Origin: Escherichia phage KW1E_UTAR
Sequence record: MZ506873
Length of the DNA stretch: 45,161 bases
Strand: one strand, 5' to 3'
Translations under genes and position numbers: made by a program
In this document: positions 1 through 45,161 of the stretch, piece by piece
Numbering within the stretch: position 1 is the first letter of the stretch
Layout of the letters: every line of letters starts with the position of its first letter
The notes under the pieces: model-generated
Databases searched by the model: none
Seen by the model: the letters and a program-made list of their open reading frames with translations, nothing else
What the model was told of the DNA's origin: nothing

Positions 1-152
1 GGGGATGCCTGAACATGCTGGAAGTGTCGGGCCGATACACTGGGGAGCGAGAAATCAGACTGGTGACTGTGGACCCTGACGACTGCGCGCTTTTCTCTGG
101 TGACGCCGCCGGGCGTCCGGCTTGGGGTATCGCCTGTTTAATTTATTCTTGA
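1..152 (+). CDS. DNA primase, C-terminal part (gene continues from 44425..45106 across the circular junction)
   Basis: Open frame runs in from the window end without a stop; stop TGA at 150-152; bases 1-55 duplicate 45107-45161. Confidence 0.6.
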   Translation, partial: GCLNMLEVSGRYTGEREIRLVTVDPDDCALFSGDAAGRPAWGIACLIYS

Positions 153-178
153 CGGCGAATAATGCCTTCGCCTATATT
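149..178 (+). promoter_or_regulatory. sigma70-like promoter candidate (TTGACG -35, about 18-nt spacer, TATATT -10) with AT-rich upstream tract
   Basis: Hexamers read directly; located upstream of the RBS-preceded ATG at 207. Confidence 0.35.
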
Positions 179-206
179 ACGCAGACCACATAACGGAGGA
201 TTCAAA

Positions 207-596
207 ATGTTACAGTCCAGAACAGTCACAGCCCGTAACGCCGGGGAATTGATTCGCACTATTTACGACAGCCTCGTCATTAGTCACGACGTCATTGTCA
301 GCACGAACGCGCCAGCAGTATCGGCGGTCATCGTGGACTCAATCGCATGTTATGCGCCTTTGGGCTTCAGCGTGACGAGGAACGACAAGTTCAGCCTGAA
401 CGCAGTGGCTAATTTCCTGGCTACGTCGCTGGAACAGAAGGGGCCGACGGCGAAGTTCGTCACCATCGCACCGAAGCACATCCAGATCGGAACGAAGCTT
501 CCTGTGTCCGTGACGCGTATTATCGTGGACGACGCGGCGGTGTTTCTGGGTGAAGTCATGGCGCTTATCGAAAATATGAAGGAAGACTCAAAATGA
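207..596 (+). CDS. hypothetical protein
   Basis: ORF-track frame 162..596; start chosen at ATG 207, 6 nt after GGAGGA (195-200). Confidence 0.55.
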   Translation: MLQSRTVTARNAGELIRTIYDSLVISHDVIVSTNAPAVSAVIVDSIACYAPLGFSVTRNDKFSLNAVANFLATSLEQKGPTAKFVTIAPKHIQIGTKLPVSVTRIIVDDAAVFLGEVMALIENMKEDSK

Positions 597-5117: not shown

Positions 5118-5145
5118 GAAAGGCGACCGATAGGCCGCCTTTTTG
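5118..5145. terminator. bidirectional terminator between convergent gene blocks
   Basis: AAAGGCG-...-CGCCTTTTT hairpin flanked by A and T runs; between Rz (+) and the 5176..5940 gene (-). Confidence 0.5.
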
Positions 5146-6193: not shown

Positions 6194-6396
6194 TAGTAAA
6201 GCCTCAGTGTGAAGCCGTTCCGTTCCTTCGCCGTGTTGGGTCTGTTCGGGTCGACTTGTCGATAAACATGGATTGTGACCTTGTAGCCCATCTTCTGAGC
6301 GACAACCAGGACCGCGAAGTCGAAGCTGAACACCAGTGCCGTGATCACGATAAGCTTCACGACCTTCCTGACTACAGCGCTGATATTACGCTTCAC
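6193..6396 (-). CDS. small membrane protein
   Basis: 67 aa with hydrophobic stretch VVKLIVITALVFSFDFAVLVVA. Confidence 0.4.
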   Translation of the reverse strand: MKRNISAVVRKVVKLIVITALVFSFDFAVLVVAQKMGYKVTIHVYRQVDPNRPNTAKERNGFTLRLY

Positions 6397-6408
6397 GGAT
6401 AACCCCTG

Positions 6409-6954
6409 TCAACTTTTGTTTAGCGCGCGTTTCCTGCGCATGTTGTCCCGGTTCTTGCGGCGGCGTTCTGCTGCCTGTTCCGGCGTCTCGTTCTTCCGGC
6501 GTTCACGTTCGCGCTGGGCTGGCGTCATCACCTGGACACGTTCACCGTTCACAGTGACACGCGGAGGGATTAGCTCACCATCGATCGCCACGGTGTTCTG
6601 TGCGACAGCATATTCGACGTAATGCTGTGCAACATCACGGATGAACTGTGGCTGTGTACCATTAAGAAAGCGAATGATGTCAGAATATCCTATCAGGTCC
6701 AGCTTTTCGACCCGATCGTTTTCACCAGCATAAAGCGACCCTGACTTCGAACCATCGATCGCACTGAAGCGTACAACGTTCGCCCCGGTAAGCGAGCGAA
6801 CCACGCCTTTGCATCGAACGATTTTACCATCGCGAATAAACAGGTCGCCGTCCTGAAGCACCACGTGCCACGAAAGCAGTACGCCGGGACGGACCAGTAA
6901 CGCCAGGTTACGCGCTGCTGACATAACTGCCGATCTGTAGTGGAATGATGACAT
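6409..6954 (-). CDS. hypothetical protein with strongly basic C-terminal tail
   Basis: C-terminus RERERRKNETPEQAAERRRKNRDNMRRKRALNKS suggests nucleic-acid binding. Confidence 0.5.
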   Translation of the reverse strand: MSSFHYRSAVMSAARNLALLVRPGVLLSWHVVLQDGDLFIRDGKIVRCKGVVRSLTGANVVRFSAIDGSKSGSLYAGENDRVEKLDLIGYSDIIRFLNGTQPQFIRDVAQHYVEYAVAQNTVAIDGELIPPRVTVNGERVQVMTPAQRERERRKNETPEQAAERRRKNRDNMRRKRALNKS

Positions 6955-7821: not shown

Positions 7822-8592
7822 TTACAGAGTCCAGCGACCAGTGTTATTGACCATCATGTCGTGTGCGCCGACTCGCTTGTTCATCTTGAACACGTATACG
7901 CGGTCAAGCGTCCCTTCCTGCCCGTAGCAGATGTTAGCCACCTGCTTCTTAACCTGCTTGCTGAAGTATGCCGCGTCAGTCGATTCGCGGATGACGTCGA
8001 CCGTTCTGGTTGAGCAGTCGATCGAGACAGCGACAGAACCTTCGAGCGACATACGGGACGCGTCTACCGGGTAAGACGGGACCACTTCAGCCTGGGCCGG
8101 GCTGACCAGTGAAGAGAAGACCAGCGCAGCACCAGCGAACGCCAGGCCGATTTTGTGCGACAGGCTGTTCCGACGGGCCAGTGTTTGAGTGATGGCCTGA
8201 TCCTGGGCGGATTTTTTAGTCATCATTCTGGCGCGGAAGTCACGACAGAAATCAGAATCATCGTCACGAAGTGAAGCGTAGCCAGCATCATTATCAATCG
8301 CGTCATTCATGCGCAGCGCTTCAGCGTGGTAAGCGTCCATCTGTTCTGACACGCGAAGGGCAGCTTCAGCACAATAAATAACAGTGCTCAGGTGGTTAAA
8401 GAAGTCACGACCAGAACGACGCTTCAGAACATTCTCAACGTTGAACAGGATGTCCGCTGGCAGTTCGTTAGACAGTTCACACAGGATTACGCGAAGGTCT
8501 GATTTACTCTCTTTCAGCTTCAGACCAGCGGCGCGCAGTTCGTAAACGCGGGTCATAATTTTCAGTGCAGAGCGGATAGCGATAGAGTTCAT
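7822..8592 (-). CDS. membrane-anchored protein (cytoplasmic N-domain, one transmembrane segment, periplasmic C-domain)
   Basis: Internal hydrophobic segment IGLAFAGAALVFSSLVSPAQA around residue 160. Confidence 0.55.
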   Translation of the reverse strand: MNSIAIRSALKIMTRVYELRAAGLKLKESKSDLRVILCELSNELPADILFNVENVLKRRSGRDFFNHLSTVIYCAEAALRVSEQMDAYHAEALRMNDAIDNDAGYASLRDDDSDFCRDFRARMMTKKSAQDQAITQTLARRNSLSHKIGLAFAGAALVFSSLVSPAQAEVVPSYPVDASRMSLEGSVAVSIDCSTRTVDVIRESTDAAYFSKQVKKQVANICYGQEGTLDRVYVFKMNKRVGAHDMMVNNTGRWTL

Positions 8593-8643
8593 TTTCGTGT
8601 TCCTTTGGATTTTGGCGGAACGTTGTGTCCCGCCTTGAGATAC

Positions 8644-8671
8644 ATATTACAGGAAGCGAATATTACGTCAA
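8644..8671 (-). promoter_or_regulatory. sigma70-like promoter (TTGACG-N16-TAATAT) on the minus strand
   Basis: Minus strand reads TTGACGtaatattcgcttcctgTAATAT, upstream of the 7822..8592 gene. Confidence 0.4.
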
Positions 8672-9000
8672 GAAGATATTTCGACTTTAATCGCAAAAAC
8701 TTCAACCGGGTCCGGCCCGAAGTGAGGATGTGTGATGGTCTTCACAGTGTAGCCACGGTAAGCGACATCGATCCGGCGACTGGCATCACCGCGCGGCGGG
8801 TAGCCCAGCGTAATGACCAGGCGGTCATATTTCCGACCCTCCAGGCGCTTCCTCCAGTACGGCGTGACAAGGCGATACTCTTCCACCTTCTCACCGCTTA
8901 CCATCTGGTCGAAGTAGACCTTCTTCACTGCTAACTGAAGCGTTACCATAGCCGTTTCACTCCTTCCTTCGCCATTTGCCATTCCATGTGATTGGCGCAC
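8668..9000 (-). CDS. ASCH/DUF3850-like domain protein (tentative)
   Basis: LAVKKVYFDQMVSGEKVEEYRL...VITLGY pattern resembles ASCH-type PUA-like domains; start may be the internal ATG at 8948. Confidence 0.45.
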   Translation of the reverse strand: MRQSHGMANGEGRSETAMVTLQLAVKKVYFDQMVSGEKVEEYRLVTPYWRKRLEGRKYDRLVITLGYPPRGDASRRIDVAYRGYTVKTITHPHFGPDPVEVFAIKVEISS

Positions 9001-10825: not shown

Positions 10826-11121
10826 TTAAGACAATACAGCATAGACGCGGCGCGCGCAACGTTCCGACGTCTAAAACATGCATATTACGACCTCACTATC
10901 AGTATGTTGTTTAACCACAGTAAGACAAAAATCCCAAAAGTGGCCCGATATCAATGACTTACGCGTGTCTTAACTTTCCGCCCCCTAATAAATAAAAACA
11001 AGTAAGACAAAACACCTCACGCGTACACTTAACTACTATATATTCCACCCTTGAGGGGTGGATATATATTAGTAGTGTGTAATAAGTGCATCTTGAGGAA
11101 AACAGACAGTCTTGTCTTAAC
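10826..11121. repeat. Cluster of five TAAGACA/TGTCTTA iteron-like repeats in an AT-rich divergent intergenic region
   Basis: TAAGACA at 10827, 10921, 11003; reverse complement at 10966, 11113; palindrome CCACCCttgagGGGTGG at 11045-11061. Confidence 0.6.
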
Positions 11122-11152
11122 TGTTCGACAAAGTAGAATCATACCTCAGTCG

Positions 11153-11161
11153 TGATATAAT
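11153..11161 (+). promoter_or_regulatory. extended -10 promoter element (TGaTATAAT)
   Basis: Perfect TATAAT at 11156-11161 preceded by TG at 11153-11154; about 22 nt upstream of the ATG at 11184. Confidence 0.4.
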
Positions 11162-12961: not shown

Positions 12962-13288
12962 ATGTTTAAATTACTGAAATGCAAGATCGACGCAGAGCGG
13001 GCGCTTGTGTCCGCCGCTATCACCGACGCGCTGGAAGCTGTACGCGAAGCCGAAGCGCAGGGCATCACCGTAACCGAAGCCAGCCCGGTAGACTGTGGCT
13101 TCGACTACGTGGTCCTTGAGTTCTTCGTGTACGGATGCAAGCCAGGCGGGAACCGTCGCCGACTGGGTGCGATTCAGGACCGCCCCGGCTCCATGCTGTG
13201 GCGCATCCACGGACGTCAGGGAGCCTACTCACTGGCAGACATCATCCGCCGCATGACGAACGGCATCATCGAAGGGTCAGCACTATGA
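12962..13288 (+). CDS. hypothetical protein
   Basis: 108-aa ORF tightly packed after the previous gene. Confidence 0.5.
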   Translation: MFKLLKCKIDAERALVSAAITDALEAVREAEAQGITVTEASPVDCGFDYVVLEFFVYGCKPGGNRRRLGAIQDRPGSMLWRIHGRQGAYSLADIIRRMTNGIIEGSAL

Positions 13289-13521
13289 ACACAGTACAGG
13301 CGAAGTCATTAGCGAAAAGCAAACAGATGGAGGTTACGGCAGACCACACCCTGAACGGGAAGACATACTTCGTGGTGATTGATACCACCAATGACGAGGC
13401 GGTGATTGTAAACCGAGCCAGTCGCGTATGGTGGCGGCCTGAAGGGGCTATCGCTAACCATCTTCGTGGGGTGGCTATCGAAGTGGCTGTTTGCTCGTTA
13501 TTATGCCGCCGTAATAAATAA
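13285..13521 (+). CDS. hypothetical protein
   Basis: Start ATG 13285 in ATGA overlap with upstream stop (ORF-track frame 13135..13521). Confidence 0.45.
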   Translation: MNTVQAKSLAKSKQMEVTADHTLNGKTYFVVIDTTNDEAVIVNRASRVWWRPEGAIANHLRGVAIEVAVCSLLCRRNK

Positions 13522-13524
13522 TCC

Positions 13525-13552
13525 TTGACGCGTCATTCGTGGCGCGTAATAC
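13525..13552 (+). promoter_or_regulatory. sigma70-like promoter (TTGACG-N16-TAATAC), copy A of a duplicated 42-bp element
   Basis: Shares an identical 21-mer and ATTCGTGG spacer core with the element at 20806-20847. Confidence 0.5.
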
Positions 13553-13582
13553 TGTCCAGACACCAACCAATGAGGCCACAAC

Positions 13583-13915
13583 ATGATAAGCATGACCAAA
13601 ATTAAGCTTAACAACCACAATGGATACTCTTCTCTGAAGGACTACCCGTTCCCGGTTGTCGTGAAAGTGATCAACGAGCGAAGCGCAGCGTATTGCATCA
13701 ACGATGACGGCGGACTGATTGAAGTGTCATGTGACGAACTCGTCAAGGCAGCGCCTGAATGGGATGCTCCTTCATGGTTCGAAGGCGAGACAATCCACTT
13801 TTCACGAGGTGGCTGGTTCGATCCTGGAGAGAGGGCAGGCTGGAGTCCGATCGACGACAACCCGTTCGCGCACTGGAACGCCCTGAAGTCATCCCGTCCC
13901 GTGGGTGCGCTATGA
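13583..13915 (+). CDS. hypothetical protein
   Basis: 110-aa ORF with TGAGG upstream. Confidence 0.5.
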   Translation: MISMTKIKLNNHNGYSSLKDYPFPVVVKVINERSAAYCINDDGGLIEVSCDELVKAAPEWDAPSWFEGETIHFSRGGWFDPGERAGWSPIDDNPFAHWNALKSSRPVGAL

Positions 13916-14100
13916 GAAGAGTACGTGTCGCAAACTGCCCGGAGTGCGGGCAGATTGTACCGCTTGATCGGGCTAAGCCTCGCACGCGTCGCGATGGTCA
14001 GGTCCTCATTCAGCGCCTGGCGTTCACCGCGTGCGTCAACTGCTACCGCGTATTCAACAATGACAATGTTGAATCGTGGCTGACTAAACTGGGGGAATAG
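13912..14100 (+). CDS. small zinc-ribbon protein (CxxC...CxxC)
   Basis: MRRVRVANCPECGQ...CVNCYRVF; ATGA overlap with upstream gene. Confidence 0.45.
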   Translation: MRRVRVANCPECGQIVPLDRAKPRTRRDGQVLIQRLAFTACVNCYRVFNNDNVESWLTKLGE

Positions 14101-14370
14101 ATGATTCGAAAATCCGTATTAGACGACATGGACACAGACGCGGCGCTTCAGGCGCTGCTGTCACTGTCTGAGCGAAAGGCTATCAGTCAGACTGACCTGG
14201 CTGAAGGCGTGAAGCACATCATGCGCCGGGCGGCGTTCAGCGTCTTCCAGCTTCATCGCCTACAGTCCGGGCTGGACATGCCTGACGTCATGCCGTCATC
14301 GATCGAACTGGTCATCAAAGACCTGGCGCTTAACCAGGCAATCAAAAACCTGAATGAGTTACACCAATGA
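14101..14370 (+). CDS. hypothetical protein
   Basis: 89-aa ORF starting 1 nt after the upstream stop. Confidence 0.45.
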   Translation: MIRKSVLDDMDTDAALQALLSLSERKAISQTDLAEGVKHIMRRAAFSVFQLHRLQSGLDMPDVMPSSIELVIKDLALNQAIKNLNELHQ

Positions 14371-14873
14371 AGAAGCACCTGTCCGAAGCATTAACCAAAC
14401 TAGTTAGCGGGTACGAATGCCGCACCTATGGCAGCATCAAAGCGGAAGCTGTAGCGCTTGAGCAGTTAAAGATCGACCTTCACGGTCAGCTTAAGTTCTG
14501 CTATCACCATCTTACAGCGGACGCTCGCGGGTTCATCGATCGGGCCGGGAGCGCAAGCACCATGCATTACGCGTTAACGTGTATCACTGCCGCCGCTGCC
14601 GGACTGCTGACGTCTTACGAGATCGACAGGCAGATGAACGAGTCCATCATGTCGAACGTGACAGCGCAGGTGGACAGCCTGGCGATGAAGGCCACGACCA
14701 GACACGTCGGCCTACTGGATGGGCTGGCACAGCTTCAGCGCTACGACATCGAAGAGAAGAGCGGGAACCCGTTCGCCTCATACCGTTGCATTGAGGAAGA
14801 CGAGTTCGGCGACTATCTGAAGCGGGAAGATGTGATTCGTCTTCTGGGCGGGAACCCTGAAGAGTACCCGTAA
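14367..14873 (+). CDS. hypothetical protein
   Basis: 168-aa ORF, ATGA overlap. Confidence 0.5.
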   Translation: MKKHLSEALTKLVSGYECRTYGSIKAEAVALEQLKIDLHGQLKFCYHHLTADARGFIDRAGSASTMHYALTCITAAAAGLLTSYEIDRQMNESIMSNVTAQVDSLAMKATTRHVGLLDGLAQLQRYDIEEKSGNPFASYRCIEEDEFGDYLKREDVIRLLGGNPEEYP

Positions 14874-14940
14874 AATAATACTTGCGCCGGGCGTAATAGT
14901 CCGGCATTATTACGACTCACACAACAAAGGAGTGAATGAC

Positions 14941-15237
14941 ATGGCAAGAACGAAGGCTTTATCCGTACTCACGAACGCGCAGGTCTACACGTTGCGCCGC
15001 CTGGCCTCTGGTCGGTCGTACATGTGTCAGGGCAACGGGAAGCGAGCATTCGAGCGCCGCAAGGAATACCGCGTAGGCTTCGACGATGTGAACGCGCCGT
15101 CAATCCCGCCACTGATTCGGAAGGGACTCGCCAGGATTGACCCGCGCTACACCAACCCGAACCCGACCAGCTATTACCCGGTAGTTCTGACCGTGGAAGG
15201 CGTCAAGGCAGCAAAAGAGGCGGTGATTAATGATTAA
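14941..15237 (+). CDS. hypothetical protein
   Basis: ORF-track frame 14932..15237; start chosen at ATG 14941 after AGGAG. Confidence 0.5.
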   Translation: MARTKALSVLTNAQVYTLRRLASGRSYMCQGNGKRAFERRKEYRVGFDDVNAPSIPPLIRKGLARIDPRYTNPNPTSYYPVVLTVEGVKAAKEAVIND

Positions 15238-16633: not shown

Positions 16634-16803
16634 AGGCTCTGTTCTGGATCGTGGTTTTCGGTCTACTGTTCTTAATGGCTGGCCTTGAGTCAAACAGTCG
16701 CCGTGAACGTTGCGAAGTCGACATGGCAAAGCAGCTACACAGCGAAGCCATTTATCAGCATGGTGAATGTATTGTGAAAGGATGGGGCAAGGTTCGACTA
16801 TAG
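16630..16803 (+). CDS. 57-aa small membrane protein (tentative)
   Basis: Hand-translated MKALFWIVVFGLLFLMAGLE...; ATGA overlap with upstream micro-ORF. Confidence 0.35.
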   Translation: MKALFWIVVFGLLFLMAGLESNSRRERCEVDMAKQLHSEAIYQHGECIVKGWGKVRL

Positions 16804-16823
16804 CCACCAACCTGTAATAGAAT

Positions 16824-16856
16824 GGCCCCATTGATTTAACCTCATGGGGCCTTTTT
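16824..16856 (+). terminator. rho-independent terminator directly upstream of the terminase large subunit gene
   Basis: GGCCCCA-...-TGGGGCC hairpin followed by TTTTT; terminase ATG follows at 16858. Confidence 0.55.
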
Positions 16857-16857
16857 C

Positions 16858-18207
16858 ATGTCCACAGTTTCAGACCTGTCCTCATTCACAGAACTGACCC
16901 TTACGCCGCCACAGTGGGAATTCCTACAGCTTGACTGTAAACATCCGGCATTCGTCGCCGGGTTCGGTACTGGCAAATCCCAGACCCTTGCAGTGTCAGC
17001 AGTCATCGACTCATGCGAAGGCGGGGCCGACTCCCTCGTCGCTATCCTGGAACCAACCTTCGACCTGTGCCGCACGATCGCCGTCCCCCGCGTCCAGCAG
17101 ATCCTGTCTGAACTGGGAATCCGATCGAAGTACAACAAGAGCGACAACACGATCTACACGTCACACGGCGGGGTGGGTGACTTCCTGTTCCGCTCAATGG
17201 ATAACCCTTCCCGACTGGTAGGCTGGGAAGCGTACAGCGCACATCTTGACGAACTGGACACCCTGAAGAAGAAGGACGCAAAAAGCGTATGGCTGGCGAT
17301 GATCGGGCGTACCCGACAGACCGTTCGGGAAGTCAGCCTGATGGACTGGCTGCCGACCACACGACCAGCCAACCGCGTCGCCGCTTACTGTACGCCTGAA
17401 GGGTTTAACTTCCTCTATGGGCGATGGGCGAAGGACAAGGACCGCGCGCGTGATGCTGGCTACGGCATGATCCAGGCTGCGTCCATGTCTAACCCGTTCC
17501 TTCCGCCTGGCTACCTGGACAGCTTGCGAGCCAGTTATGACCCGCAACGCTTCCAGGCGTACGCTGAAGGCAGATTCGTCAACCTGAACGGCGGGTCCAT
17601 CTATCACAAGTTCGATCGCAAGCTGAACGGGTGCGACACGACAATCCAACCGGGCGAACCGCTGACCATCGGGCAGGACTTCAACGTCGGCAAAATGGCC
17701 ACTGTTATCTACGTGGACCGCTGGGGGGATGATGGTCTGGAGGAACTCCACGCCGTCGCGGAAATCAAAGACGGAGTAGACACACCGGACGTGATCGAGA
17801 AGTTAACGGCAGCCTATCCGGGCCACGAATTGAACCTGTACCCGGACGCCAGCGGACAGAACACTTCATCGAAGTCCGCTTCCGTGTCAGACGTCGGCCT
17901 GTTCGAAGAGGCTGGCTTCCTGGTGCATGTCCACGGCTCTAACCCACGCGTCAAGGACCGCGTTATCAGCATGAACACCATGATCTGTGACATGAATGGA
18001 CGCCGTCGCCTGAAGGTGAACGAAAAAGCCTGTCCGACGTTTGCAGACTGTCTGGAGCAACAGATCTACGCGGAGAACGGGGAGCCGGACAAGAAGGGGG
18101 GCAAGGACCATATGAACGATGCTGGCGGCTATCCTGTAGTTTATCGCTTCCCTATTATCCGTGATAAGATGGACGCCTCTGACATGACTATCAGATTCGC
18201 ACGATAA
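16858..18207 (+). CDS. terL: terminase large subunit
   Basis: Walker A-like VAGFGTGKSQT near N-terminus, Walker B-like HLDELD, about 450 aa, directly upstream of portal. Confidence 0.85.
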   Translation: MSTVSDLSSFTELTLTPPQWEFLQLDCKHPAFVAGFGTGKSQTLAVSAVIDSCEGGADSLVAILEPTFDLCRTIAVPRVQQILSELGIRSKYNKSDNTIYTSHGGVGDFLFRSMDNPSRLVGWEAYSAHLDELDTLKKKDAKSVWLAMIGRTRQTVREVSLMDWLPTTRPANRVAAYCTPEGFNFLYGRWAKDKDRARDAGYGMIQAASMSNPFLPPGYLDSLRASYDPQRFQAYAEGRFVNLNGGSIYHKFDRKLNGCDTTIQPGEPLTIGQDFNVGKMATVIYVDRWGDDGLEELHAVAEIKDGVDTPDVIEKLTAAYPGHELNLYPDASGQNTSSKSASVSDVGLFEEAGFLVHVHGSNPRVKDRVISMNTMICDMNGRRRLKVNEKACPTFADCLEQQIYAENGEPDKKGGKDHMNDAGGYPVVYRFPIIRDKMDASDMTIRFAR

Positions 18208-18221
18208 GGAGACAGACCATA

Positions 18222-19691
18222 ATGGCTGAAAATATGAACGTGGACACGAAGCACCCGCTATACACGGAATTCCACCCAGAATACAAACTGGTGGCTGACT
18301 GTGTGGCGGGCGAGCGTCGCATCAAGGCGGGGACCACGCTTTACCTTCCGCGCGTGTCCTCATGGGAAGACCAGCGCTACCTGAATTATATGCTTCGCGC
18401 CCGCTTCATGAACGGGACCGGGCGAACCCTGTCGGCCCTTATCGGTATCGCGATGGAGAAGCCGCTCGGAATCAACATGGACACGCAATTCGACTACCTG
18501 CGCGAAGACAGTGACGGGAAGGGCAAGTCCATCACCCAGCTTTTCCGTGATGCCCTAAGCCAGAACCTTCAGAAAGGGCGCGGCGGGATCCTGCTGGACA
18601 ACACGGCAATCAATGACGGCGAATACATGATCGGCGAGCGCACGATCGCCCAGAACTCAAAGGAACGCTGGGTCCTTCGCCACTTCGACGCGACGCACAT
18701 CATCAACTGGCGCACAGTCAACGGCAAGCTGTCCCTTCTGGTCCTGAAGTACCACGAAGAGATCGAGACAGAGGGCTTCGAGCATGAGCCGATCACCATC
18801 TGGCTGGAGTACCGCATGAAGGGCGGTCGATGCTACGGGCGAATCTGGAAGTCACCGCCAGGCGTCACCACTCCGACGGCTGTGGTAATGGGTACTGGCG
18901 AAGCGGAAACGGACCTGATCCCGCTGTCAATTAAGGGTAAGGCCCTAGATCATATCCCGTTCGCCTGGTACGGTTCGGAGAACAATGACGAGATCCCGGA
19001 CACGCCGCCTCTGGCTGACCTTGCGCGCCTGAACGTGGGCCACTATCAGGCCGACGCCGATATCGCTGAATCAGCATTCCAGGCCGGGCAACCTACAATC
19101 ACCATTTCCGGGCTGTCGGAAGCATGGGCGAAGAACTTCATGAAGAAGGGCGTGGAAGTGGGTTCGACGGAAGCCGTACTTCTGCCAGCTAACGCAAAAA
19201 TGGAGATCGTCCAGGCGAAGGAAACCACGGCATCTACAAAGCGCCAGGAAGCGCTGGAAACTCAGATGGCTAAGATGGGTGCGAAGTTCATCGAACGCGG
19301 CGCAGGGAACCGCACAGCGACCCAGGCGAGCGACGAAGCGCAGACGGACAATTCCATCCTGTCGCAATGCGTCGGGAACGTCGAAGCAGCTATCAACCTG
19401 GCTATGTCTTGGGTGGGCGCTGGCGAGATCACCGCGAACAAACGCTTCGTTGCCATTCAGGTAGACAGTCAGGCTCTGGTGGCTATGATGTCGGCAGTTC
19501 AGGCGAACCTGATGACCATCGAAGACTTCGTCCGCTGGCAGCAGCAGATCGGCCTTGCAGACCCGAACGCGACCGTCGAACAGATCGTCACCCAATTACG
19601 GAACCAGGTTATCGACCTGCCGGACAGTGACTTCACCGACGTGACCGACAAGGACGCGAAGACCACAACCGAAGAGGATGACGCGGAATAA
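18222..19691 (+). CDS. portal protein
   Basis: 489 aa immediately after terminase large subunit; strong RBS AAGGAG; acidic C-terminus. Confidence 0.75.
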   Translation: MAENMNVDTKHPLYTEFHPEYKLVADCVAGERRIKAGTTLYLPRVSSWEDQRYLNYMLRARFMNGTGRTLSALIGIAMEKPLGINMDTQFDYLREDSDGKGKSITQLFRDALSQNLQKGRGGILLDNTAINDGEYMIGERTIAQNSKERWVLRHFDATHIINWRTVNGKLSLLVLKYHEEIETEGFEHEPITIWLEYRMKGGRCYGRIWKSPPGVTTPTAVVMGTGEAETDLIPLSIKGKALDHIPFAWYGSENNDEIPDTPPLADLARLNVGHYQADADIAESAFQAGQPTITISGLSEAWAKNFMKKGVEVGSTEAVLLPANAKMEIVQAKETTASTKRQEALETQMAKMGAKFIERGAGNRTATQASDEAQTDNSILSQCVGNVEAAINLAMSWVGAGEITANKRFVAIQVDSQALVAMMSAVQANLMTIEDFVRWQQQIGLADPNATVEQIVTQLRNQVIDLPDSDFTDVTDKDAKTTTEEDDAE

Positions 19692-20809
19692 TGGCGAAAT
19701 CAGTCAATCAACGACTGGCAGACGAGGCGGTTAAACACCGCCTTTATCTGGCCCGTTACGGAACCGGGACCGCGCGCAAGATGCAAGCGGCGATGAAAAA
19801 GGCCGAACTGGAAATCAGTGTCCAGCTATTCCGCGCGCTTGAACAGGTTCAGCCCACAGCGATGAACTGGAACCAGCGCCACCTGGCGCAGATCAAGAAG
19901 TCCATCCAGAAGACCGTGTTCAGCGTATACGAACAGGTCTTCGGTCAGCTTAACGCAGACCTGAAGGAGCTAGTCCAGTATGAAGCGAAATATCAGGCGG
20001 CGAATCTCGCGTCAGCGATCCCTCTGGAGGCTCAACCGTTCGTGAACATCCAGTCGACGACGTGGTCACAGGTCTGGGCGTCAGCCACGGCGAAGCCATT
20101 CCAGGGCGCTCTTCTGAAGGAGTGGGCCGACCGTCTGCCGGAAGCGCTGGTCAACAAGATCGGTAACGCTGTCCAGCAGGGCGTGTTACTGGGCGAAAGC
20201 TACACCGATATCATCAAGCGCGTGAAGGGAACGAAGCAAGCAGGGTATGAAGACGGCGTCGTCGGGCGTCAGCGCAAGGGCGATCTGGCTAACCTGGTGA
20301 AGACCGCCGTGAACCATGTCACCGCTGAAGCGCGTGAAGAAACAGCGAAGGTGAACGAGGACATCATCCGGGCGCGGGAATGGCTATCCACTCTGGACAC
20401 GCACACATCGCCGATGTGCATCATTCGCGATCGCCTGATGTACACCGCTGGCAGCAAGCCGAAGCCAATCGGACACAGCATTCCATACGGGGCTGGACCT
20501 GGGAGGCTTCACTTCTGCTGTCGCTCCACTGAAACGTGGGTCATCAAGTCGTGGGAAGAGTTGGGTATTCCAATGAAGGAGCTGTCACCGGGTACGCGCG
20601 CCAGCATGAACGGGCAGGTCCCGGCAAACATGACCTATTCGAAGTGGCTGGCCCGACAGGACTACTCCACACAGGAGCAAGTATTGGGCGTGACCCGCGC
20701 GCAGATGCTACGCGACGGCAAGATCGACGTCCCTGATCTGTTCGGTGATAAGGGCGAATGGCTGACTCTGAAGCAACTGGCGGAATTAGACAGGATTACA
20801 GATTCGTAA
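19691..20809 (+). CDS. head morphogenesis protein (Mu F / SPP1 gp7-like)
   Basis: Position after portal; HTSPMCIIRD resembles the conserved Cys motif of MuF-like proteins. Confidence 0.7.
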   Translation: MAKSVNQRLADEAVKHRLYLARYGTGTARKMQAAMKKAELEISVQLFRALEQVQPTAMNWNQRHLAQIKKSIQKTVFSVYEQVFGQLNADLKELVQYEAKYQAANLASAIPLEAQPFVNIQSTTWSQVWASATAKPFQGALLKEWADRLPEALVNKIGNAVQQGVLLGESYTDIIKRVKGTKQAGYEDGVVGRQRKGDLANLVKTAVNHVTAEAREETAKVNEDIIRAREWLSTLDTHTSPMCIIRDRLMYTAGSKPKPIGHSIPYGAGPGRLHFCCRSTETWVIKSWEELGIPMKELSPGTRASMNGQVPANMTYSKWLARQDYSTQEQVLGVTRAQMLRDGKIDVPDLFGDKGEWLTLKQLAELDRITDS

Positions 20810-20819
20810 TAAATAATCC

Positions 20820-20847
20820 TTGACGTTGTATTCGTGGTAAGTAATAA
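20820..20847 (+). promoter_or_regulatory. sigma70-like promoter (TTGACG-N16-TAATAA), copy B of the duplicated 42-bp element
   Basis: 34 of 42 nt identical to 13511-13552, including the 21-mer CGTAATAAATAATCCTTGACG. Confidence 0.5.
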
Positions 20848-20879
20848 TCCCTCCCAGACATCAACCGGAGGGATTTTTT
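20848..20879 (+). terminator. hairpin plus T6 (terminator or attenuator) that sequesters the SD of the downstream gene
   Basis: TCCCTCC-cagacatcaacc-GGAGGGA then TTTTTT then ATG 20880; the 3' arm contains the GGAGGG RBS. Confidence 0.45.
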
Positions 20880-21110
20880 ATGGAGCGTAACGAGCGGTTA
20901 GCCCGCGAAGCCGTCATCATGCTGGAAAAGGAAGCTATGAACCTGCTTACCAACTTCCGCCAGGCCATACCGAAGCTGGGCGCGCAAGGCGGTGATCAGG
21001 GTGATAGTGACTGGGCTGACGTCAAGCTGTGCGAAATGGCAATGAACCGCATTGTCCGCGATCTGCGCTACATCATTCAACGTAACAACTGGTTAATCAA
21101 AGGTGAATAA
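20880..21110 (+). CDS. hypothetical protein
   Basis: 76-aa ORF downstream of the promoter/hairpin. Confidence 0.5.
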   Translation: MERNERLAREAVIMLEKEAMNLLTNFRQAIPKLGAQGGDQGDSDWADVKLCEMAMNRIVRDLRYIIQRNNWLIKGE

Positions 21111-21111
21111 C

Positions 21112-22134
21112 ATGGAACTTCAGAATCAATTCGGCATCAACGAACTAAACGTCATCGGCGCATACGCTAACTACAACGCCGCGCTGAACATCAACGTCGC
21201 AAGCTTCAACGTTCACGACGTCGCGGCAGCGGTCCAGATCGCACTTCAGGCCGACGGACTTCGCCAGCAGGTCGGCGAATCGGTGGAAGCTATCGAGAAG
21301 GTAACGCGCGATCATGCCGCTGAAGTTAACGGTATGCAGGAGAAGCTAACCGACGCAGAGATTCGCGTTAAGGAAGCTCGAAATGACACTCGCAAGGCCG
21401 AAGCGTACAGCGAGGAACTCAGCAAAGAACTGAACTCACTGCGCGAAAACCTGGCGTCCATGACAGAATTGAAGGTTAAGTTCAGTCTACTGTCATCCAC
21501 GCACTTCGAGAACGTTGAGTTCATTCGCGGACTGCTGAACATTGGCGAAGAAGTAGGTGACGAACAGTTCCGCGAAGTGGCGAAGGGCATCGTCGACGGC
21601 CTCAAGACGAGCGAGCAGAACCGGACGAAGGCCGCCATCTACTGGTACGACGCATTGCAGAAGGTTCACGAAGCTGTCGGCGGCGATGAAGTAATCGACT
21701 CTGATGGGCTGGGCGATGACGACTTCGTCAACACACTGCGCGATCATGTGGCATCACTTCGCAGTGCGGCAGAAAGCAAGCGCGACGACACGGCGATGAT
21801 CACCCTGAAGACCATCCTGAATATTCTGGATATCGATGTCGGATATCAGACCGAAAACATGCTGGAAATGGTTCGCGGTATCAAAGAGCGATCTGACAGA
21901 TACAACGCTCAAGAATGCGAATGGAAGCGCAACTATAACGAACTGTGCAACGCGCTGGGCGTAGACAGCGTAATTCATGCTGACGTCATAGACGAGGCGA
22001 AGAAGGATGTCGAGAGGCACAAGAAGCAGGAGAACTATCAGCGCAAATATAACGAACTGAAGGGCGCTTGTGGTCTTGCTGGAATGGTTCATGATGTAGC
22101 CGTTCGAATGGCTACTGAAAACCCGGTACGCTAA
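21112..22134 (+). CDS. coiled-coil protein of unknown function
   Basis: 340 aa, heptad-rich and Glu/Lys-rich; start chosen at ATG 21112 after AAAGGTGA (track GTG 21103). Confidence 0.55.
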   Translation: MELQNQFGINELNVIGAYANYNAALNINVASFNVHDVAAAVQIALQADGLRQQVGESVEAIEKVTRDHAAEVNGMQEKLTDAEIRVKEARNDTRKAEAYSEELSKELNSLRENLASMTELKVKFSLLSSTHFENVEFIRGLLNIGEEVGDEQFREVAKGIVDGLKTSEQNRTKAAIYWYDALQKVHEAVGGDEVIDSDGLGDDDFVNTLRDHVASLRSAAESKRDDTAMITLKTILNILDIDVGYQTENMLEMVRGIKERSDRYNAQECEWKRNYNELCNALGVDSVIHADVIDEAKKDVERHKKQENYQRKYNELKGACGLAGMVHDVAVRMATENPVR

Positions 22135-22152
22135 CAGATCTACCAATATTTG

Positions 22153-22180
22153 ACGCCTCCTTCTGGGGGCGTTATTATTT
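22153..22180 (+). terminator. terminator candidate
   Basis: ACGCCTCC-ttct-GGGGGCGT stem with one G-U pair followed by TATTATTT. Confidence 0.4.
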
Positions 22181-22373
22181 CCACGCATCCCGAACCCGAC
22201 AAGGTGGCATTTATGGACGAGTGCTTCCGGGGTGCATTCATTAGCGTCTTGACCCGGTGAAAAAAGCACTGGTTCGTACGGGACGACGCAGCCAGCAGGA
22301 CGCTAATGAATAGGGGTTAGGCTCCTGTTAATCGTGGTTAGGCCACAAAAACTGACATTCACAAGGTGAACCG

Positions 22374-24269: not shown

Positions 24270-24288
24270 TAGCATCGTGCAAAATATA

Positions 24289-24310
24289 AACCCGCTTCGG
24301 CGGGTTTTTT
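24289..24310 (+). terminator. rho-independent terminator after the major capsid gene
   Basis: AACCCGC-ttcg-GCGGGTT hairpin followed by TTTTTT. Confidence 0.7.
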
Positions 24311-26914: not shown

Positions 26915-26941
26915 GACCGCCGCTTCAGGCGGTCTTTTTTT
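26915..26941 (+). terminator. rho-independent terminator after the major tail gene
   Basis: GACCGCC-gcttca-GGCGGTC hairpin followed by T7. Confidence 0.7.
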
Positions 26942-39110: not shown

Positions 39111-39139
39111 AAAAAGGGGCCGAAAGGCCCCTATTTTTT
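39109..39139. terminator. bidirectional rho-independent terminator
   Basis: A7-AGGGGCC-gaaa-GGCCCCT-ATTTTTT between convergent tail fibre (+) and replication-block (-) transcription. Confidence 0.65.
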
Positions 39140-39502: not shown

Positions 39503-39976
39503 TCAGAACGGGATATCATCGTCGAACCCGCTGGTCTGCTGCTGACGCTGTGGAGCTTGCTGCTGTGGCTGTCGCTGTGGCTGCTGTGTCTGCTGGCGTG
39601 GCTGTGAAGGCTGCTGTGGTTCACCCCATCCGCCGCCCTGTGGCGTCTTCTGACCAAAGAGAAGTTTAGGATCTACCATTTCAAGGGTGATATAGGTCTG
39701 CCCGTTATTACCTTCACGCTGATCGATGTTAAGCGCCTCAGACTGGATGGACACGATCTTACCCTTCACCAGGATGTCGTCATAAAAGGCGATCGCCGCC
39801 GGGGTCTTCGCGAACAGGGTGGCCTTATAGTTCGTGTAAACGCGTTCGTTATTCTGTCGGCGATCCTTGAACGATTCGGACATGTCCACGCCGTACATAA
39901 CATACGTACCGTTATTGTTGCTTCCTTCCTTGCGGAACACGTCGCGGCGAATCTCGCCTGTGATAATGTGTGGCAT
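39503..39976 (-). CDS. ssb: single-stranded DNA-binding protein
   Basis: Gln/Pro-rich linker and acidic C-terminal tip DDDIPF typical of SSB. Confidence 0.85.
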   Translation of the reverse strand: MPHIITGEIRRDVFRKEGSNNNGTYVMYGVDMSESFKDRRQNNERVYTNYKATLFAKTPAAIAFYDDILVKGKIVSIQSEALNIDQREGNNGQTYITLEMVDPKLLFGQKTPQGGGWGEPQQPSQPRQQTQQPQRQPQQQAPQRQQQTSGFDDDIPF

Positions 39977-40780: not shown

Positions 40781-41851
40781 TTATTTAGCTGTTTCCAGAT
40801 CTTCCCAAAGGTGCTTAAACTCACGTTCAACGTAGAACGGAGGGTCAAGATCGATCGGGTTCCCACCGCCGTATGTCGTCCAGTGGTCGTTATCCTTCGC
40901 GAACTTGTACATCGCCAGCGCCTGGCGAAGCGCCGCTGTACCGATAAGCAGGGTCTTGCGCGTCATGCGGAACTCTTCAGGGATGAACGGCGCGTCCTTT
41001 TCCTGCGCCAGCAGAACGACGCCTTTCGGGTTACGTCCCCACACTGCCCGGAACGCGTGGAACTGAAGCGCCATTTTCATATGGTAGCCCAGATCGAACG
41101 CCTTCCGGCGGAACTTGTCCGTCTGACATGAATCAGTCGTCTTGTAGTCCCAGATCTCACCGTCATCTGTCAGGCGGTCCCAGCGGACCTTAACCTTTAC
41201 GCCGAACAGTTCGAAGAAGACAGACACTTCAGACTTACCGCCGTGAATGACGCGGTGATACTGTGGGTTATTCAGGATGACTTCGCGCATCCTCATACAC
41301 TTGTCGAAGTCCTCCGCCGGGACCTGTACGCGTTCACCTGCTTCTTCCTTCGCAGCCTTCTCGACCTCATGCCAGAAGACAGGCATCACTTCATCACCGC
41401 CGTTTTCCTGGGAGGAAATGACAGCCTGACGGATTGTTTCCGCCAGCGCTGCAGGATCACTATTTGAGCGCCCGGCAAGTCCGCGCTCTTTGGCCCATCG
41501 TTGCATGGCAGCCACAGACGTCAGTGGCGCGAAGGTGACATTCCCTTCGTCGTCGCGGGTCGTGTAGTCCTCAGGGCAAGGCATACGGAAGAACTCAGCG
41601 TCGAAGCGATCAGGTTCAAGCATCATGGCGTGTGACGTGGTCCCAAAGACCAGCGCCTTCGACTTCTGCTTCTTCTCTTCGCTGTCCTCATAGCGCCATT
41701 TTGCCAAGCATAGCTGGTACATCTTCCATAATGAAGTCCCGCTTATATGGTCTTCGTCCTTGTGGTAGTCTTCGTTGCTCAGTTCGTCAGCGTAGAAGAT
41801 GATCGGCTGATATGGCTCCGGCGCTACTTGATCGATAATCTGGTCTGTCAT
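40781..41851 (-). CDS. recombination exonuclease, PD-(D/E)XK superfamily
   Basis: VRWDRLTDDGEIWDYKTT resembles a D...(D/E)xK core; sits beside ERF and SSB; start chosen at ATG 41851 after GAGGAAA (track 41911). Confidence 0.65.
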   Translation of the reverse strand: MTDQIIDQVAPEPYQPIIFYADELSNEDYHKDEDHISGTSLWKMYQLCLAKWRYEDSEEKKQKSKALVFGTTSHAMMLEPDRFDAEFFRMPCPEDYTTRDDEGNVTFAPLTSVAAMQRWAKERGLAGRSNSDPAALAETIRQAVISSQENGGDEVMPVFWHEVEKAAKEEAGERVQVPAEDFDKCMRMREVILNNPQYHRVIHGGKSEVSVFFELFGVKVKVRWDRLTDDGEIWDYKTTDSCQTDKFRRKAFDLGYHMKMALQFHAFRAVWGRNPKGVVLLAQEKDAPFIPEEFRMTRKTLLIGTAALRQALAMYKFAKDNDHWTTYGGGNPIDLDPPFYVEREFKHLWEDLETAK

Positions 41852-41871
41852 GTTATGTTTCCTCTGCAAAT

Positions 41872-41898
41872 AAAAAAAGGGGCCTTCTATCCGGCCCC
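41872..41898 (-). terminator. minus-strand hairpin plus U7 (internal terminator or attenuator)
   Basis: Minus strand reads GGGGCC-ggatagaa-GGCCCC followed by TTTTTTT, between the VRR-NUC-like and exonuclease genes. Confidence 0.45.
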
Positions 41899-41907
41899 TG
41901 TAATATC

Positions 41908-42378
41908 TCATTCTGTGATTACGCCGTCAAGATACCAGCGCATAAAAATCATAAAACTTTTCCATCCATAGCAGACGACGCCGAACCCTCCGCCTTTTAT
42001 GGACTTCACCAGCCATTCAGATTGTTCTTCGCTTACCGCCGAAGCTAGTGTCTTCGTGGCCCGCTTTAACTCCACAGCGGCGAACCCGAACCGCCCACAG
42101 TGGGACCTGTGATTCACCTGGATGTCACTCGCTCCCTTCTCAAGTCCCATCTGGCGAAGCTGGCTTCTGTACTGCGCCGGAAGGTCTGCCGACTCGTTCA
42201 CGATGTGGCAGATAGCGACGTCCTTCCAGTGCTTCCGCCAGTGGCTAGCGCAGTCGATTTGGTGTAGCTTTTCGACGCGCTTGTCGGTCTTGTCCATGCT
42301 GTAAAGTTCGCAATATCCAGCGGGGTTCATGGACAGCGCCAGCGGGATCCTGTTCTTGTCAGATATCAAACGATTCAT
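41908..42378 (-). CDS. VRR-NUC-like nuclease (tentative)
   Basis: GASDIQV...FAAVELKRA...SEEQSEW...GGGFGVVCYG resembles VRR-NUC; follows the helicase with a 20-nt overlap. Confidence 0.5.
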   Translation of the reverse strand: MNRLISDKNRIPLALSMNPAGYCELYSMDKTDKRVEKLHQIDCASHWRKHWKDVAICHIVNESADLPAQYRSQLRQMGLEKGASDIQVNHRSHCGRFGFAAVELKRATKTLASAVSEEQSEWLVKSIKGGGFGVVCYGWKSFMIFMRWYLDGVITE

Positions 42379-44424: not shown

Positions 44425-45161
44425 GTGGCTAGTTACGATAAAACTGAAGTCCTTCAGGCAATGCTGACCAGGTGGCCTTCGGCCCTTGCGGAGCTGTGCG
44501 GATGGTCTGCTGATACGTTCAATGAACGGAAGCATTCATCATGCCCGGTCTGTGGTGGGCGGGACCGCTTCAGATGGGGGCATAAGAAGCCGAAGCAGCG
44601 CGACGAAGGGTTCGCATGGTGCAACCAGTGCGGAAGTCACGATGGGATATGGTGGTTCAGTAAGGCGCGAAATCAGTCGTTCGCTGAAGCCATTAACGAT
44701 CTGGGTGAATGGATAGGCGGTATGTCCGTCCAGCAGTTCGACAACGTCGCGAAGAAGGCGAAGGCGATGTCGAAGACGGTGGAGCGTCCGACGGTCCGCA
44801 TAAGCCACGAACAGGCCGAAGAACTGCTATCCCGCCCAGCGAAGGAAGGGTTCATCTATCTGCCGTGTCACGAAGTGGTCGACGGCGACATTCAGGCGCG
44901 CCCGGTCAACGTTGCGCGGGTAGGTAAGGACTTCAGCGTAACATTCGCCGCTGGTCGTGCATTCCCTGATTCACCGACCACGTTCACCTGGGGAAGCGTG
45001 ACGCCAATCAACCGGAAGCTGGACGGGTCGCCTGTCTACATGATCGAGGATCTCGATCTTGGCCTTGAGATAGCGGAGCGACACGACCGCGAAGTGTGGA
45101 TCGCGTGGGGATGCCTGAACATGCTGGAAGTGTCGGGCCGATACACTGGGGAGCGAGAAAT
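44425..45161 (+). CDS. DNA primase (zinc-binding N-terminus plus TOPRIM-like region), N-terminal part
   Basis: CPVCGGRDRFRW...WCNQCGSHDG zinc motif; YMIEDLDLGLEIAE acidic TOPRIM-like block; GTG start at 44425 after AAGGGG; no stop before window end. Confidence 0.7.
   Translation, partial: MASYDKTEVLQAMLTRWPSALAELCGWSADTFNERKHSSCPVCGGRDRFRWGHKKPKQRDEGFAWCNQCGSHDGIWWFSKARNQSFAEAINDLGEWIGGMSVQQFDNVAKKAKAMSKTVERPTVRISHEQAEELLSRPAKEGFIYLPCHEVVDGDIQARPVNVARVGKDFSVTFAAGRAFPDSPTTFTWGSVTPINRKLDGSPVYMIEDLDLGLEIAERHDREVWIAWGCLNMLEVSGRYTGERE
45107..45161. repeat. 55-bp exact duplicate of positions 1-55 (circular closure overlap)
   Basis: Read directly: GGGGATGCCTGAACATGCTGGAAGTGTCGGGCCGATACACTGGGGAGCGAGAAAT at both ends. 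Confidence 0.9.

Follow-up and report, generated by a model that had tools for sequence, protein, structure and literature searches.

Putative sigma-70 promoter cassettes, several joined to stem-loops, recur at gene junctions of Escherichia phage KW1E_UTAR

The genome of Escherichia phage KW1E_UTAR (record MZ506873), analyzed here as one window of 45,161 nucleotides (nt), carries a sequence repeated at two gene junctions and a small family of related elements at further junctions. As judged from the sequence, these elements are probably paralogous promoter cassettes of the sigma-70 type, at which transcription would begin anew between genes; several of them are combined with predicted stem-loops or terminators. 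In full form, a cassette of ~85 bp would consist of a stop codon within an A/T tract, the -35 hexamer TTGACG, a spacer of 16–17 nt, the -10 hexamer (G)TAATAnT, a short C/A-rich leader, a Shine–Dalgarno (SD) sequence, and an ATG. The cassettes most likely belong to ordinary phage biology and constitute a new instance of an already known type of element in an unexpected phage group.

The repeat and the cassette family

The 21-mer CGTAATAAATAATCCTTGACG occurs in identical form at 13510–13530 (copy 1) and 20805–20825 (copy 2). A preliminary description of this DNA considered such a repeat to be beyond chance, and this is borne out by the absence of any match in 100 dinucleotide-preserving shuffles. 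No other site for the 21-mer exists in the window at up to three mismatches. The number of identical positions over 42 nt, given there as 34, is in fact 35 (83%), with seven positions differing; ATTCGTGG in the spacer and the following TAATA are present in both copies as described. When a 3-nt indel is allowed in a MAFFT alignment, the similarity of the copies extends both ways to a repeated unit of ~85 nt: upstream to an ATTA motif at the end with the upstream stop codon and downstream through CCAGACAYCAACC to the SD sequence. The similarity beyond the -10 hexamer (CCAGACAYCAACC) and a paralogue at 22135–22178 had been overlooked, as had the stem-loop and terminator elements and the placement of cassettes at mosaic boundaries. 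The two copies and a third strict member of the family on the minus strand, where ORF denotes an open reading frame, comprise the following features.

13500–13585, plus strand: cassette copy 1, from the end of ORF 13285–13521 to the ATG at 13583
13512–13524, plus strand: A/T tract of copy 1 with stop codon
13525–13530, plus strand: -35 hexamer TTGACG of copy 1
13528–13547, plus strand: spacer hairpin ACGCGTCA-TTCG-TGGCGCGT of copy 1, with ATTCG at 13535–13539
13547–13553, plus strand: -10 region TAATAC/AATACT of copy 1
~13558–13560, plus strand: predicted start of copy 1, followed by a C/A-rich leader and the SD sequence GAGG at 13572–13575
20795–20882, plus strand: cassette copy 2, matching the promoter consensus at 10 of 12 positions
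20807–20809, plus strand: stop codon TAA of the head-morphogenesis gene, within the A/T tract of copy 2
20820–20825, plus strand: -35 hexamer TTGACG of copy 2, with ATTCG at 20830–20834
20842–20848, plus strand: -10 region TAATAA/AATAAT of copy 2
20846–20854 and 20867–20875, plus strand: arms of a 9-bp hairpin of copy 2 (centroid -13.2 kcal/mol), then T6 at 20874–20879
20867–20872, plus strand: SD sequence GGAGGG of copy 2, inside the 3' arm of the hairpin, with the ATG at 20880
8590–8690, minus strand: third strict member, in the leftward operon downstream of repA
8671–8666, minus strand: -35 hexamer TTGACG of the third member, containing the TGA stop of ORF 8668–9000, with ATTCG at 8661–8657 and the -10 hexamer TAATAT at 8649–8644
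8634–8614, minus strand: 8-bp hairpin in the leader of the third member, with the ATG at 8592

The promoter family proposed around TTGACG-N16-TAATA is recovered by a genome-wide search for this motif: At up to one mismatch, it yields exactly three sites compared with 0.39 expected. TTGACG-N4-ATTCG identifies the three strict sites, 13525(+), 20820(+), and 8671(-), compared with 0.03 expected, and TTGACG-N4-ATTCG-N7-TAATA has exactly three exact occurrences in the genome at the same places. Two further TTGACG promoters had been named. The one at 8671–8644 on the minus strand reads TTGACG-N16-TAATAT and carries ATTCG in the same register, whereas the one at 149–178, itself located as described, reads TTGACG-N18-TATATT and is not a strict member because of its 18-nt spacer, its -10 hexamer TATATT, and the lack of ATTCG on the top strand. 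The cassette sites match the sigma-70 hexamers TTGACA and TATAAT at 9–10 of 12 positions in a consensus scan. None of the alternative sigma factors considered (sigma-32, -38, -28, and -24) has a consensus that fits.

Approximately 6% of the genome is noncoding, and all family members lie at gene junctions, each co-oriented with an SD sequence and an ATG 30–60 nt downstream. The promoters had each been said to begin where the preceding gene stops, which is approximately right: The TAA at 20807–20809 precedes copy 2, and the third TAA at 13519–13521 precedes copy 1. A TGA stop codon of the upstream gene lies within TTGAC of the -35 hexamer at 149 (150–152), 8671(-) (8670–8668), and 6412(-) (6411–6409). 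Coding and regulatory signals are packed extremely tightly at these three sites.

With an nhmmer profile of the cassette, the next-best sites in the genome are 22145–22189 (E = 0.0036), 6423–6383 on the minus strand (E = 0.0085), and 8674–8644 on the minus strand (E = 0.16), all three of them promoter-like gene junctions. The family appears to include at least five sites—13525(+), 20820(+), 8671(-), 22150(+), and 6412(-)—with 149(+) and 41930(-) as putative looser relatives. A search of the whole window against Rfam gave no match at the gathering score. The members beyond the three strict sites, and the insert enclosed by two cassettes, are as follows.

22135–22178, plus strand: more diverged paralogue (third copy of repeat family D1, 62%), closing the insert 20880–22134
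22150–22178, plus strand: TTGACG at 22150–22155, a 10-bp terminator hairpin at 22151–22174 that fills the spacer, and the -10 hexamer TATTAT at 22173–22178
20880–22134, plus strand: insert of two ORFans (76 and 343 amino acids) that separates the head-morphogenesis gene from the scaffold gene, with copy 2 on one side and the 22150 terminator/promoter on the other
6383–6412, minus strand: promoter-like site TTGACA-N18-TAATAT (10 of 12), with the TGA stop of ORF 6409–6954 in its -35 hexamer
141–209, plus strand: looser relative with A/T tract and the -35 hexamer TTGACG at 149–154, which contains the TGA of the primase gene
154–172, plus strand: inverted repeat GGCGAA (154–159)/TTCGCC (167–172) with an N7 loop in the 18-nt spacer of that site (-8.1 kcal/mol, z -2.3)
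173–178, plus strand: -10 hexamer TATATT of that site, followed by the leader CAGACCACATAAC and the ATG at 207
41878–41930, minus strand: TTGACG at 41930–41925, N17, GATATT at 41907–41902, and an abutting terminator hairpin at 41899–41878 with T7

Most members are predicted to be joined to a stem-loop, whose place differs from member to member. The spacer RNA of copy 1 is predicted to form an 8-bp hairpin, ACGCGUCA-UUCG-UGGCGCGU, of -11.6 kcal/mol (z -2.4), whose 5' arm ends with the A of ATTCG and whose loop is TTCG. The predicted hairpin at 22150 has a TTCT loop and a stability of -17.4 kcal/mol (z -4.1) and is the top terminator match; this site is promoter-like at 10 of 12 positions, is identical in the related phages KLB22 and KLB16, and shares 21 of 29 positions with the core of copy 1 in a hand alignment. 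In copy 2 and 8671(-), the spacer is not predicted to form a stable stem. The terminator-like hairpin of copy 2 instead overlaps the -10 hexamer, the predicted start region, and the SD sequence. The 41930(-) site may likewise be a promoter fused to a terminator, with a design like that of copy 2.

Layouts of this kind are also seen elsewhere. A terminator-like hairpin (GGCCCCAT...ATGGGGCC with T5, 16794–16860) precedes the ATG of the large terminase gene at 16858 with no obvious SD sequence, and a -10-like TAGAAT (in TCGACT-N18-TAGAAT) abuts it in the promoter-fused-to-terminator layout of copy 2 and 41930. At 41851–41911, corresponding to 21655–21695 in KLB22 (L001), the exonuclease VIII coding sequence of KLB22 is annotated from upstream of an internal intrinsic terminator. 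This start is likely misannotated, the true start lying downstream of the terminator as in the annotation of KLB16 and the sequence of the window. A degenerate look-alike of the cassette at 14865–14945 features CGTAAAATAATAC-TTGCGC, a hairpin GCCGG..CCGGC, TTATTAC, a C/A-rich leader, an SD sequence, and an ATG, and may represent a paralogue of the cassette that has decayed, its -35 hexamer being weak.

Conservation among four related genomes

The window is the complete, circularly assembled genome of 45,106 bp since its first 55 nt equal its last 55 nt, an exact terminal direct repeat (1–55 = 45107–45161). The primase ORF spans the closed junction and ends at 152. The genome has a GC content of 55% and is collinear with those of two phages of Klebsiella sp. 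M5a1: KLB22, the nearest relative, at ~90% nucleotide identity and KLB16 at ~78%. This group consists of T1-like siphoviruses of the proposed 'Ca. Mavericviridae' (PMC11845039). The fourth related genome, contig IMGVR_UViG_3300029257_000010, carries all three strict sites and was found by an exact-pattern scan of IMG/VR with TTGACG-N4-ATTCGTGG-N4-TAATA, which describes copies 1 and 2, and the looser TTGACG-N4-ATTCG-N7-TAATA, which describes all three sites. Among metagenome contigs, a 24-base pattern had no match and a 17-base pattern had 55 matches, all of them unrelated singletons and close in number to the chance expectation, with no further relatives; the exact-pattern scan of genome contigs gave no match. 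Because these scans gave no further relatives, footprinting is confined to four genomes. No integrase was seen, and the phage is apparently virulent.

The footprint comprises 12 sequences—three promoters in four genomes—aligned at the -35 hexamer. Three blocks are invariant in all 12, namely TTGACG, ATTCG (spacer positions 5–9), and GTAATA; the other positions vary. This invariance of the hexamers across orthologous and paralogous sequences, compared with variation at most spacer and flank positions, points to purifying selection and lends good comparative support to the family as one of candidate promoters. Directly upstream of the -35 hexamer in copies 1 and 2 lies TAATAAATAAT, within which TAAATAA is invariant in six sequences; the tract also holds the upstream stop codons. 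In the copy 2 orthologues, nine of the 11 spacer positions outside ATTCG vary (the first four bases read TTGT, CTGT, ACTT, and AGCT) compared with none of the five within it. The spacer core had been suggested to be a regulator binding site, and the constancy of ATTCG hints at this; the longer ATTCGTGG, however, is not invariant, KLB16 having ATTCGGCA in copy 2. In three genomes, the spacer stem at 149 is conserved and its loop variable. The leader hairpin at 8671(-) persists in KLB16, where one pair has changed in a compensatory way and two changes are one-sided. The KLB16 orthologue of 6412(-) reads TTGACA-N4-ATTCC-N7-TAATAT.

Copy 1 belongs to a variable block of small genes that separates the small from the large terminase gene, with ORF 13285–13521 on one side and ORF 13583–13915 on the other. 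Its core TTGACGCGTCATTCGTGGCGCGTAATACT, a stretch of 29 nt that takes in the -35 hexamer, the spacer, and the -10 region, shows no difference between the window, KLB22, KLB16, and the IMG/VR contig. The similarity between window and KLB22 is lost at 13596, which is 13 nt past the start of the downstream ORF, and reappears at 13862. Between the window and KLB16, no similarity is detected by blastn over 13293–14711, yet the promoter core is identical. The upstream ORF is 95–98% identical in the window, KLB22, and the contig; in KLB16, an unrelated gene has taken its place. The downstream ORF encodes an unrelated 85-amino-acid protein in the contig and is only distantly similar among the window, KLB22, and KLB16; a tblastn search of 50,697 phage records gave no match for it. 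Among relatives, copy 1 stands as a conserved island, with replaced or highly diverged sequence on both sides.

Copy 2 lies between the head-morphogenesis gene (19691–20809) and the ORF for 76 amino acids (20880–21110) and heads the two-ORFan insert. This insert is absent from phage JVSB2, two Klebsiella relatives of the Webervirus type, and a Serratia phage, in all of which the head-morphogenesis and scaffold genes are adjacent. In Pectobacterium phage Ymer, this spot is occupied by another insert, with a near-perfect TTGACA-N16-TATAAT at its head. The 343-amino-acid protein is found only in KLB22 (83% amino acid identity) and KLB16 (50%), compared with 98% and 89% for the neighboring head-morphogenesis protein. 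Pfam and PHROGs searches with ten ORFs flanking the cassettes, the insert ORFans among them, returned nothing informative and no function. As a side observation, the insert ORFans evolve much faster than their neighbors (83% compared with 98% identity to KLB22), and the 343-amino-acid protein has a weak coiled-coil signal; a decoration protein or an anti-defense gene are guesses as to their nature.

Proposed function, competing explanations, and known systems

In the proposed mechanism, the hexamers would be read by the sigma-70 RNA polymerase of the host; to our knowledge, phages of this kind encode no RNA polymerase of their own. The A/T tract TAATAAATAAT at approximately -50 to -38 is probably an UP element. 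Transcription would start ~7 nt past the -10 hexamer, at the A in CAGAC, which would give an unstructured leader of 24–26 nt. The stem-loop is predicted to fill the spacer in copy 1, 149, and 22150, and in copy 2 and 41930, the predicted terminator hairpin begins at the -10 hexamer, with the start expected past or inside its 5' arm. At copy 2, the predicted start at ~20855–20856 lies just 3' of the 5' arm, and because of this, transcripts initiated there could not form the hairpin, whereas upstream read-through could. Incoming upstream transcripts would be terminated or attenuated—with the SD sequence sequestered in addition at copy 2—and cassette-initiated transcripts would escape both termination and SD sequestration, making the cassette an insulated restart point. 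A second probable role of the cassettes is that of short homologous linkers in the exchange of modules, as proposed for the promoter-early stem-loops (PeSLs) of T4-like phages. This role is suggested by their position where gene content changes: Copy 1 is a conserved island, and copy 2 heads a lineage-specific insert with its own terminator.

Several points weigh against this account. No transcriptome and no mapped 5' ends turned up in the literature on KLB22, KLB16, and the present phage. The consensus is imperfectly matched by the -10 hexamers (AATACT, AATAAT, and TAATAT), and the spacer can be counted as 16 or 17 nt. The hairpin of copy 1 has no U-tract and is hence not a canonical terminator. 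Four related genomes make for thin conservation statistics, in which recent gene conversion is inseparable from selection. Among the three closest genomes, no mosaic breakpoint coincides with copy 2. A crossover between copies 1 and 2 would remove the terminase and portal genes, so that a linker role could apply only between genomes. The stem-loop account also fails for the invariance of ATTCG in copy 2 and 8671(-), in which spacer stems are degenerate; the invariant ATTCG is the one feature left over by ordinary promoter biology.

This leftover feature gives rise to an explanation in which the promoters are real and ATTCG, at approximately -25 to -21, is additionally recognized by a phage factor or a phage-modified RNA polymerase, with 8671(-), 13525(+), and 20820(+) forming a co-regulated temporal class. 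It is given a small chance. The fixed register of ATTCG in all 12 sequences amid varying spacer bases, the excess of TTGACG-N4-ATTCG over expectation, and the contrast within the copy 2 spacers speak for it, as does the presence of genes for small DNA-binding proteins, annotated in KLB22 as a helix-turn-helix regulator and a 'DNA-binding protein'. However, ATTCG is only 5 bp long, is a common 5-mer with 102 copies in the genome, and is not paired consistently, across the three promoters, with a dyad or direct-repeat counterpart as an operator would be: A second ATTCG lies 28 nt upstream in copy 2 (25 nt in KLB16), none is present in copy 1, and 8671(-) offers no more than an imperfect inverted CGAAAT. 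A generality of the pentamer in the wider phage family was rejected since it does not keep its register there; JVSB2 has TTGACA-N2-ATTCG and TTGACG-N5-ATTCC, and Ymer has none. The location of ATTCG in the 5' arm and loop of the copy 1 hairpin offers a structural, PeSL-type alternative to a regulator site. The pentamer may be the relic of a stem-loop ancestor common to 22150 with its TTCT loop, or reflect a spacer constraint, and the three sites look paralogous, so that part of their identity would stem from shared ancestry. The broader form of the idea—TTGACG-N4-ATTCG-N6-GTAATA as a distinct promoter class whose mid-spacer pentamer is read by such a factor or polymerase, with the cassettes also being PeSL-type linkers outside T4-like phages—is unlikely. 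We know of no element for temporal transcription control in T1-like or 'Mavericviridae' phages, and such a class, if real, would be a first handle on it.

The elements could alternatively be 3'-end signals of the upstream genes, namely terminators or stabilizing stem-loops, with incidental hexamer matches. The stem-loops do start 7–40 nt past upstream stop codons, 22151–22174 and 41899–41878 are predicted to be strong intrinsic terminators, and A/T-rich terminator regions with T-tracts often look like -10 boxes. Nevertheless, TTGACG and TAATA are invariant in copy 2 and 8671(-) despite the absence of a stable spacer stem, the copy 1 hairpin is not followed by a U-tract, the 16–17-nt hexamer spacing is exact in every member and every genome, and the -35 hexamer, located beyond the stems or at their margin, would not be constrained by them; this reading is regarded as very improbable. 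Almost no credence is given to the repeat being a functionless, neutral leftover of recent duplication or gene conversion. The copies are far more alike in the window, KLB22, and the IMG/VR contig than in KLB16, which fits recent homogenization, but both occupy orthologous positions in four genomes diverged to ~78% identity, substitutions spare exactly the hexamers and ATTCG, and the copy 1 core is fully identical amid flanks without detectable nucleotide similarity. Coding constraint as the cause of the 21-mer identity was rejected as the copies overlap the upstream frames differently (R-N-K-stop and D-S-stop). A pac site, cos site, attP site, or mobile-element end was likewise rejected: There is no integrase or transposase context, and the elements are co-oriented with genes and carry an SD sequence and an ATG.

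Among known systems, promoter cassettes as favored here resemble E. coli-type sigma-70 promoters with UP elements, of which rrnB P1 and the early promoters of phage T5 are examples. They share the extended -35 hexamer (tc)TTGAC, a spacer of 16–18 nt, a -10 hexamer of the TAnAnT type, and an A/T tract from -38 to -50. In contrast to these, the cassettes carry an invariant mid-spacer pentamer, spacer stem-loops, and, at three sites, a stop codon in the -35 hexamer.

The PeSL cassettes of T4-like myoviruses (PMC2839356, Arbiol et al. 2010; PMC4122927, Comeau et al. 2014) are matched nearly feature for feature with their published description: Both are repeated intergenic cassettes of ~50–100 bp with an upstream stop codon in an A/T tract, a strong sigma-70-like promoter (a predicted one here), and a 3' SD sequence with ATG, and both are linked to ORFans and to insertion or replacement breakpoints between close relatives. 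The A/T tract with stop codon, the promoter hexamers, and the SD sequence with ATG recur here as sequence features, and stem-loops within, overlapping, or next to the putative promoter are predicted at copy 1, copy 2, 22150, 149, 41930, and the 8671(-) leader. Copies 1 and 2 have the corresponding location, with the reservation that copy 2 marks no breakpoint among its three closest genomes. The differences are that PeSLs occur by the dozens in T4-like myoviruses of 170–250 kb compared with ~5–7 cassettes in this 45-kb T1-like siphovirus of 55% GC; that the stems here are not of the GGGG...CCCC type; that a spacer stem is missing from two strict members, copy 2 and 8671(-), which keep the invariant ATTCG instead; and that two members are found among the structural (late) genes and not in early hyperplastic regions. 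Mini-circle formation by recombination between cassettes is a trait of the T4-like system. Because the genome is that of a T1-like siphovirus and not T4-like, and because the activities are predicted ones, the cassettes are classed as PeSL-like only: They would work like PeSLs without being members of that class.

The block 20805–22178 further resembles a moron of lambdoid phages (the Hendrix/Juhala concept, PMC2839356) in having its own predicted promoter and terminator and in lying between genes that are adjacent in relatives. It differs in that expression from a repressed prophage is inapplicable to an apparently virulent phage and in that its flanking regulatory sequences are repeated in the genome, which classical morons do not need. 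Coupled or overlapping promoter–terminator elements of bacteria (bioRxiv 10.64898/2026.08.19.745784) are likewise described as combining initiation and termination signals of adjacent units in one short segment.

If active, the cassettes would provide a transcription map for a barely studied proposed family, with internal restart points in the packaging and head block insulated by overlapping terminators, and would extend the PeSL idea—promoter/stem-loop cassettes as junctions for ORFan swapping—from T4-like myoviruses to a small siphovirus. The ~90-bp cassettes are in addition candidates for compact, strong Klebsiella promoters and for natural 'safe' insertion points in phage engineering.

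Further features of the genome

The region 10827–11127 between repA on the minus strand and the small terminase gene contains at least five copies of TAAGACA/TGTCTTA, among them those at 10827, 10921, and 11003 and inverted ones at 10966 and 11113. A 28-nt imperfect inverted repeat (11024–11081) lies in the same region. One TAAGACA copy overlaps a promoter-like TTGTCT-N16-TAGAAT upstream of the small terminase gene, and an extended -10 hexamer, TGATATAAT, is found at ~11153–11161. The array could be a set of iterons with an origin, a pac region, or an operator array. Short imperfect tandem repeats resembling CTGCTGTGG occupy 39539–39619 within the minus-strand ORF 39503–39976, by position the SSB gene.

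Three G+C-rich symmetric hairpins are terminator-like on both strands and follow the major capsid gene (24288–24307), the major tail gene (26915–26934), and the tail fiber/recombination junction (39115–39132); the minus-strand tails of the former two are T-poor. A fourth G+C-rich symmetric hairpin, at 5119–5142, follows the junction between lysis genes and the leftward operon and is terminator-like on the minus strand only.

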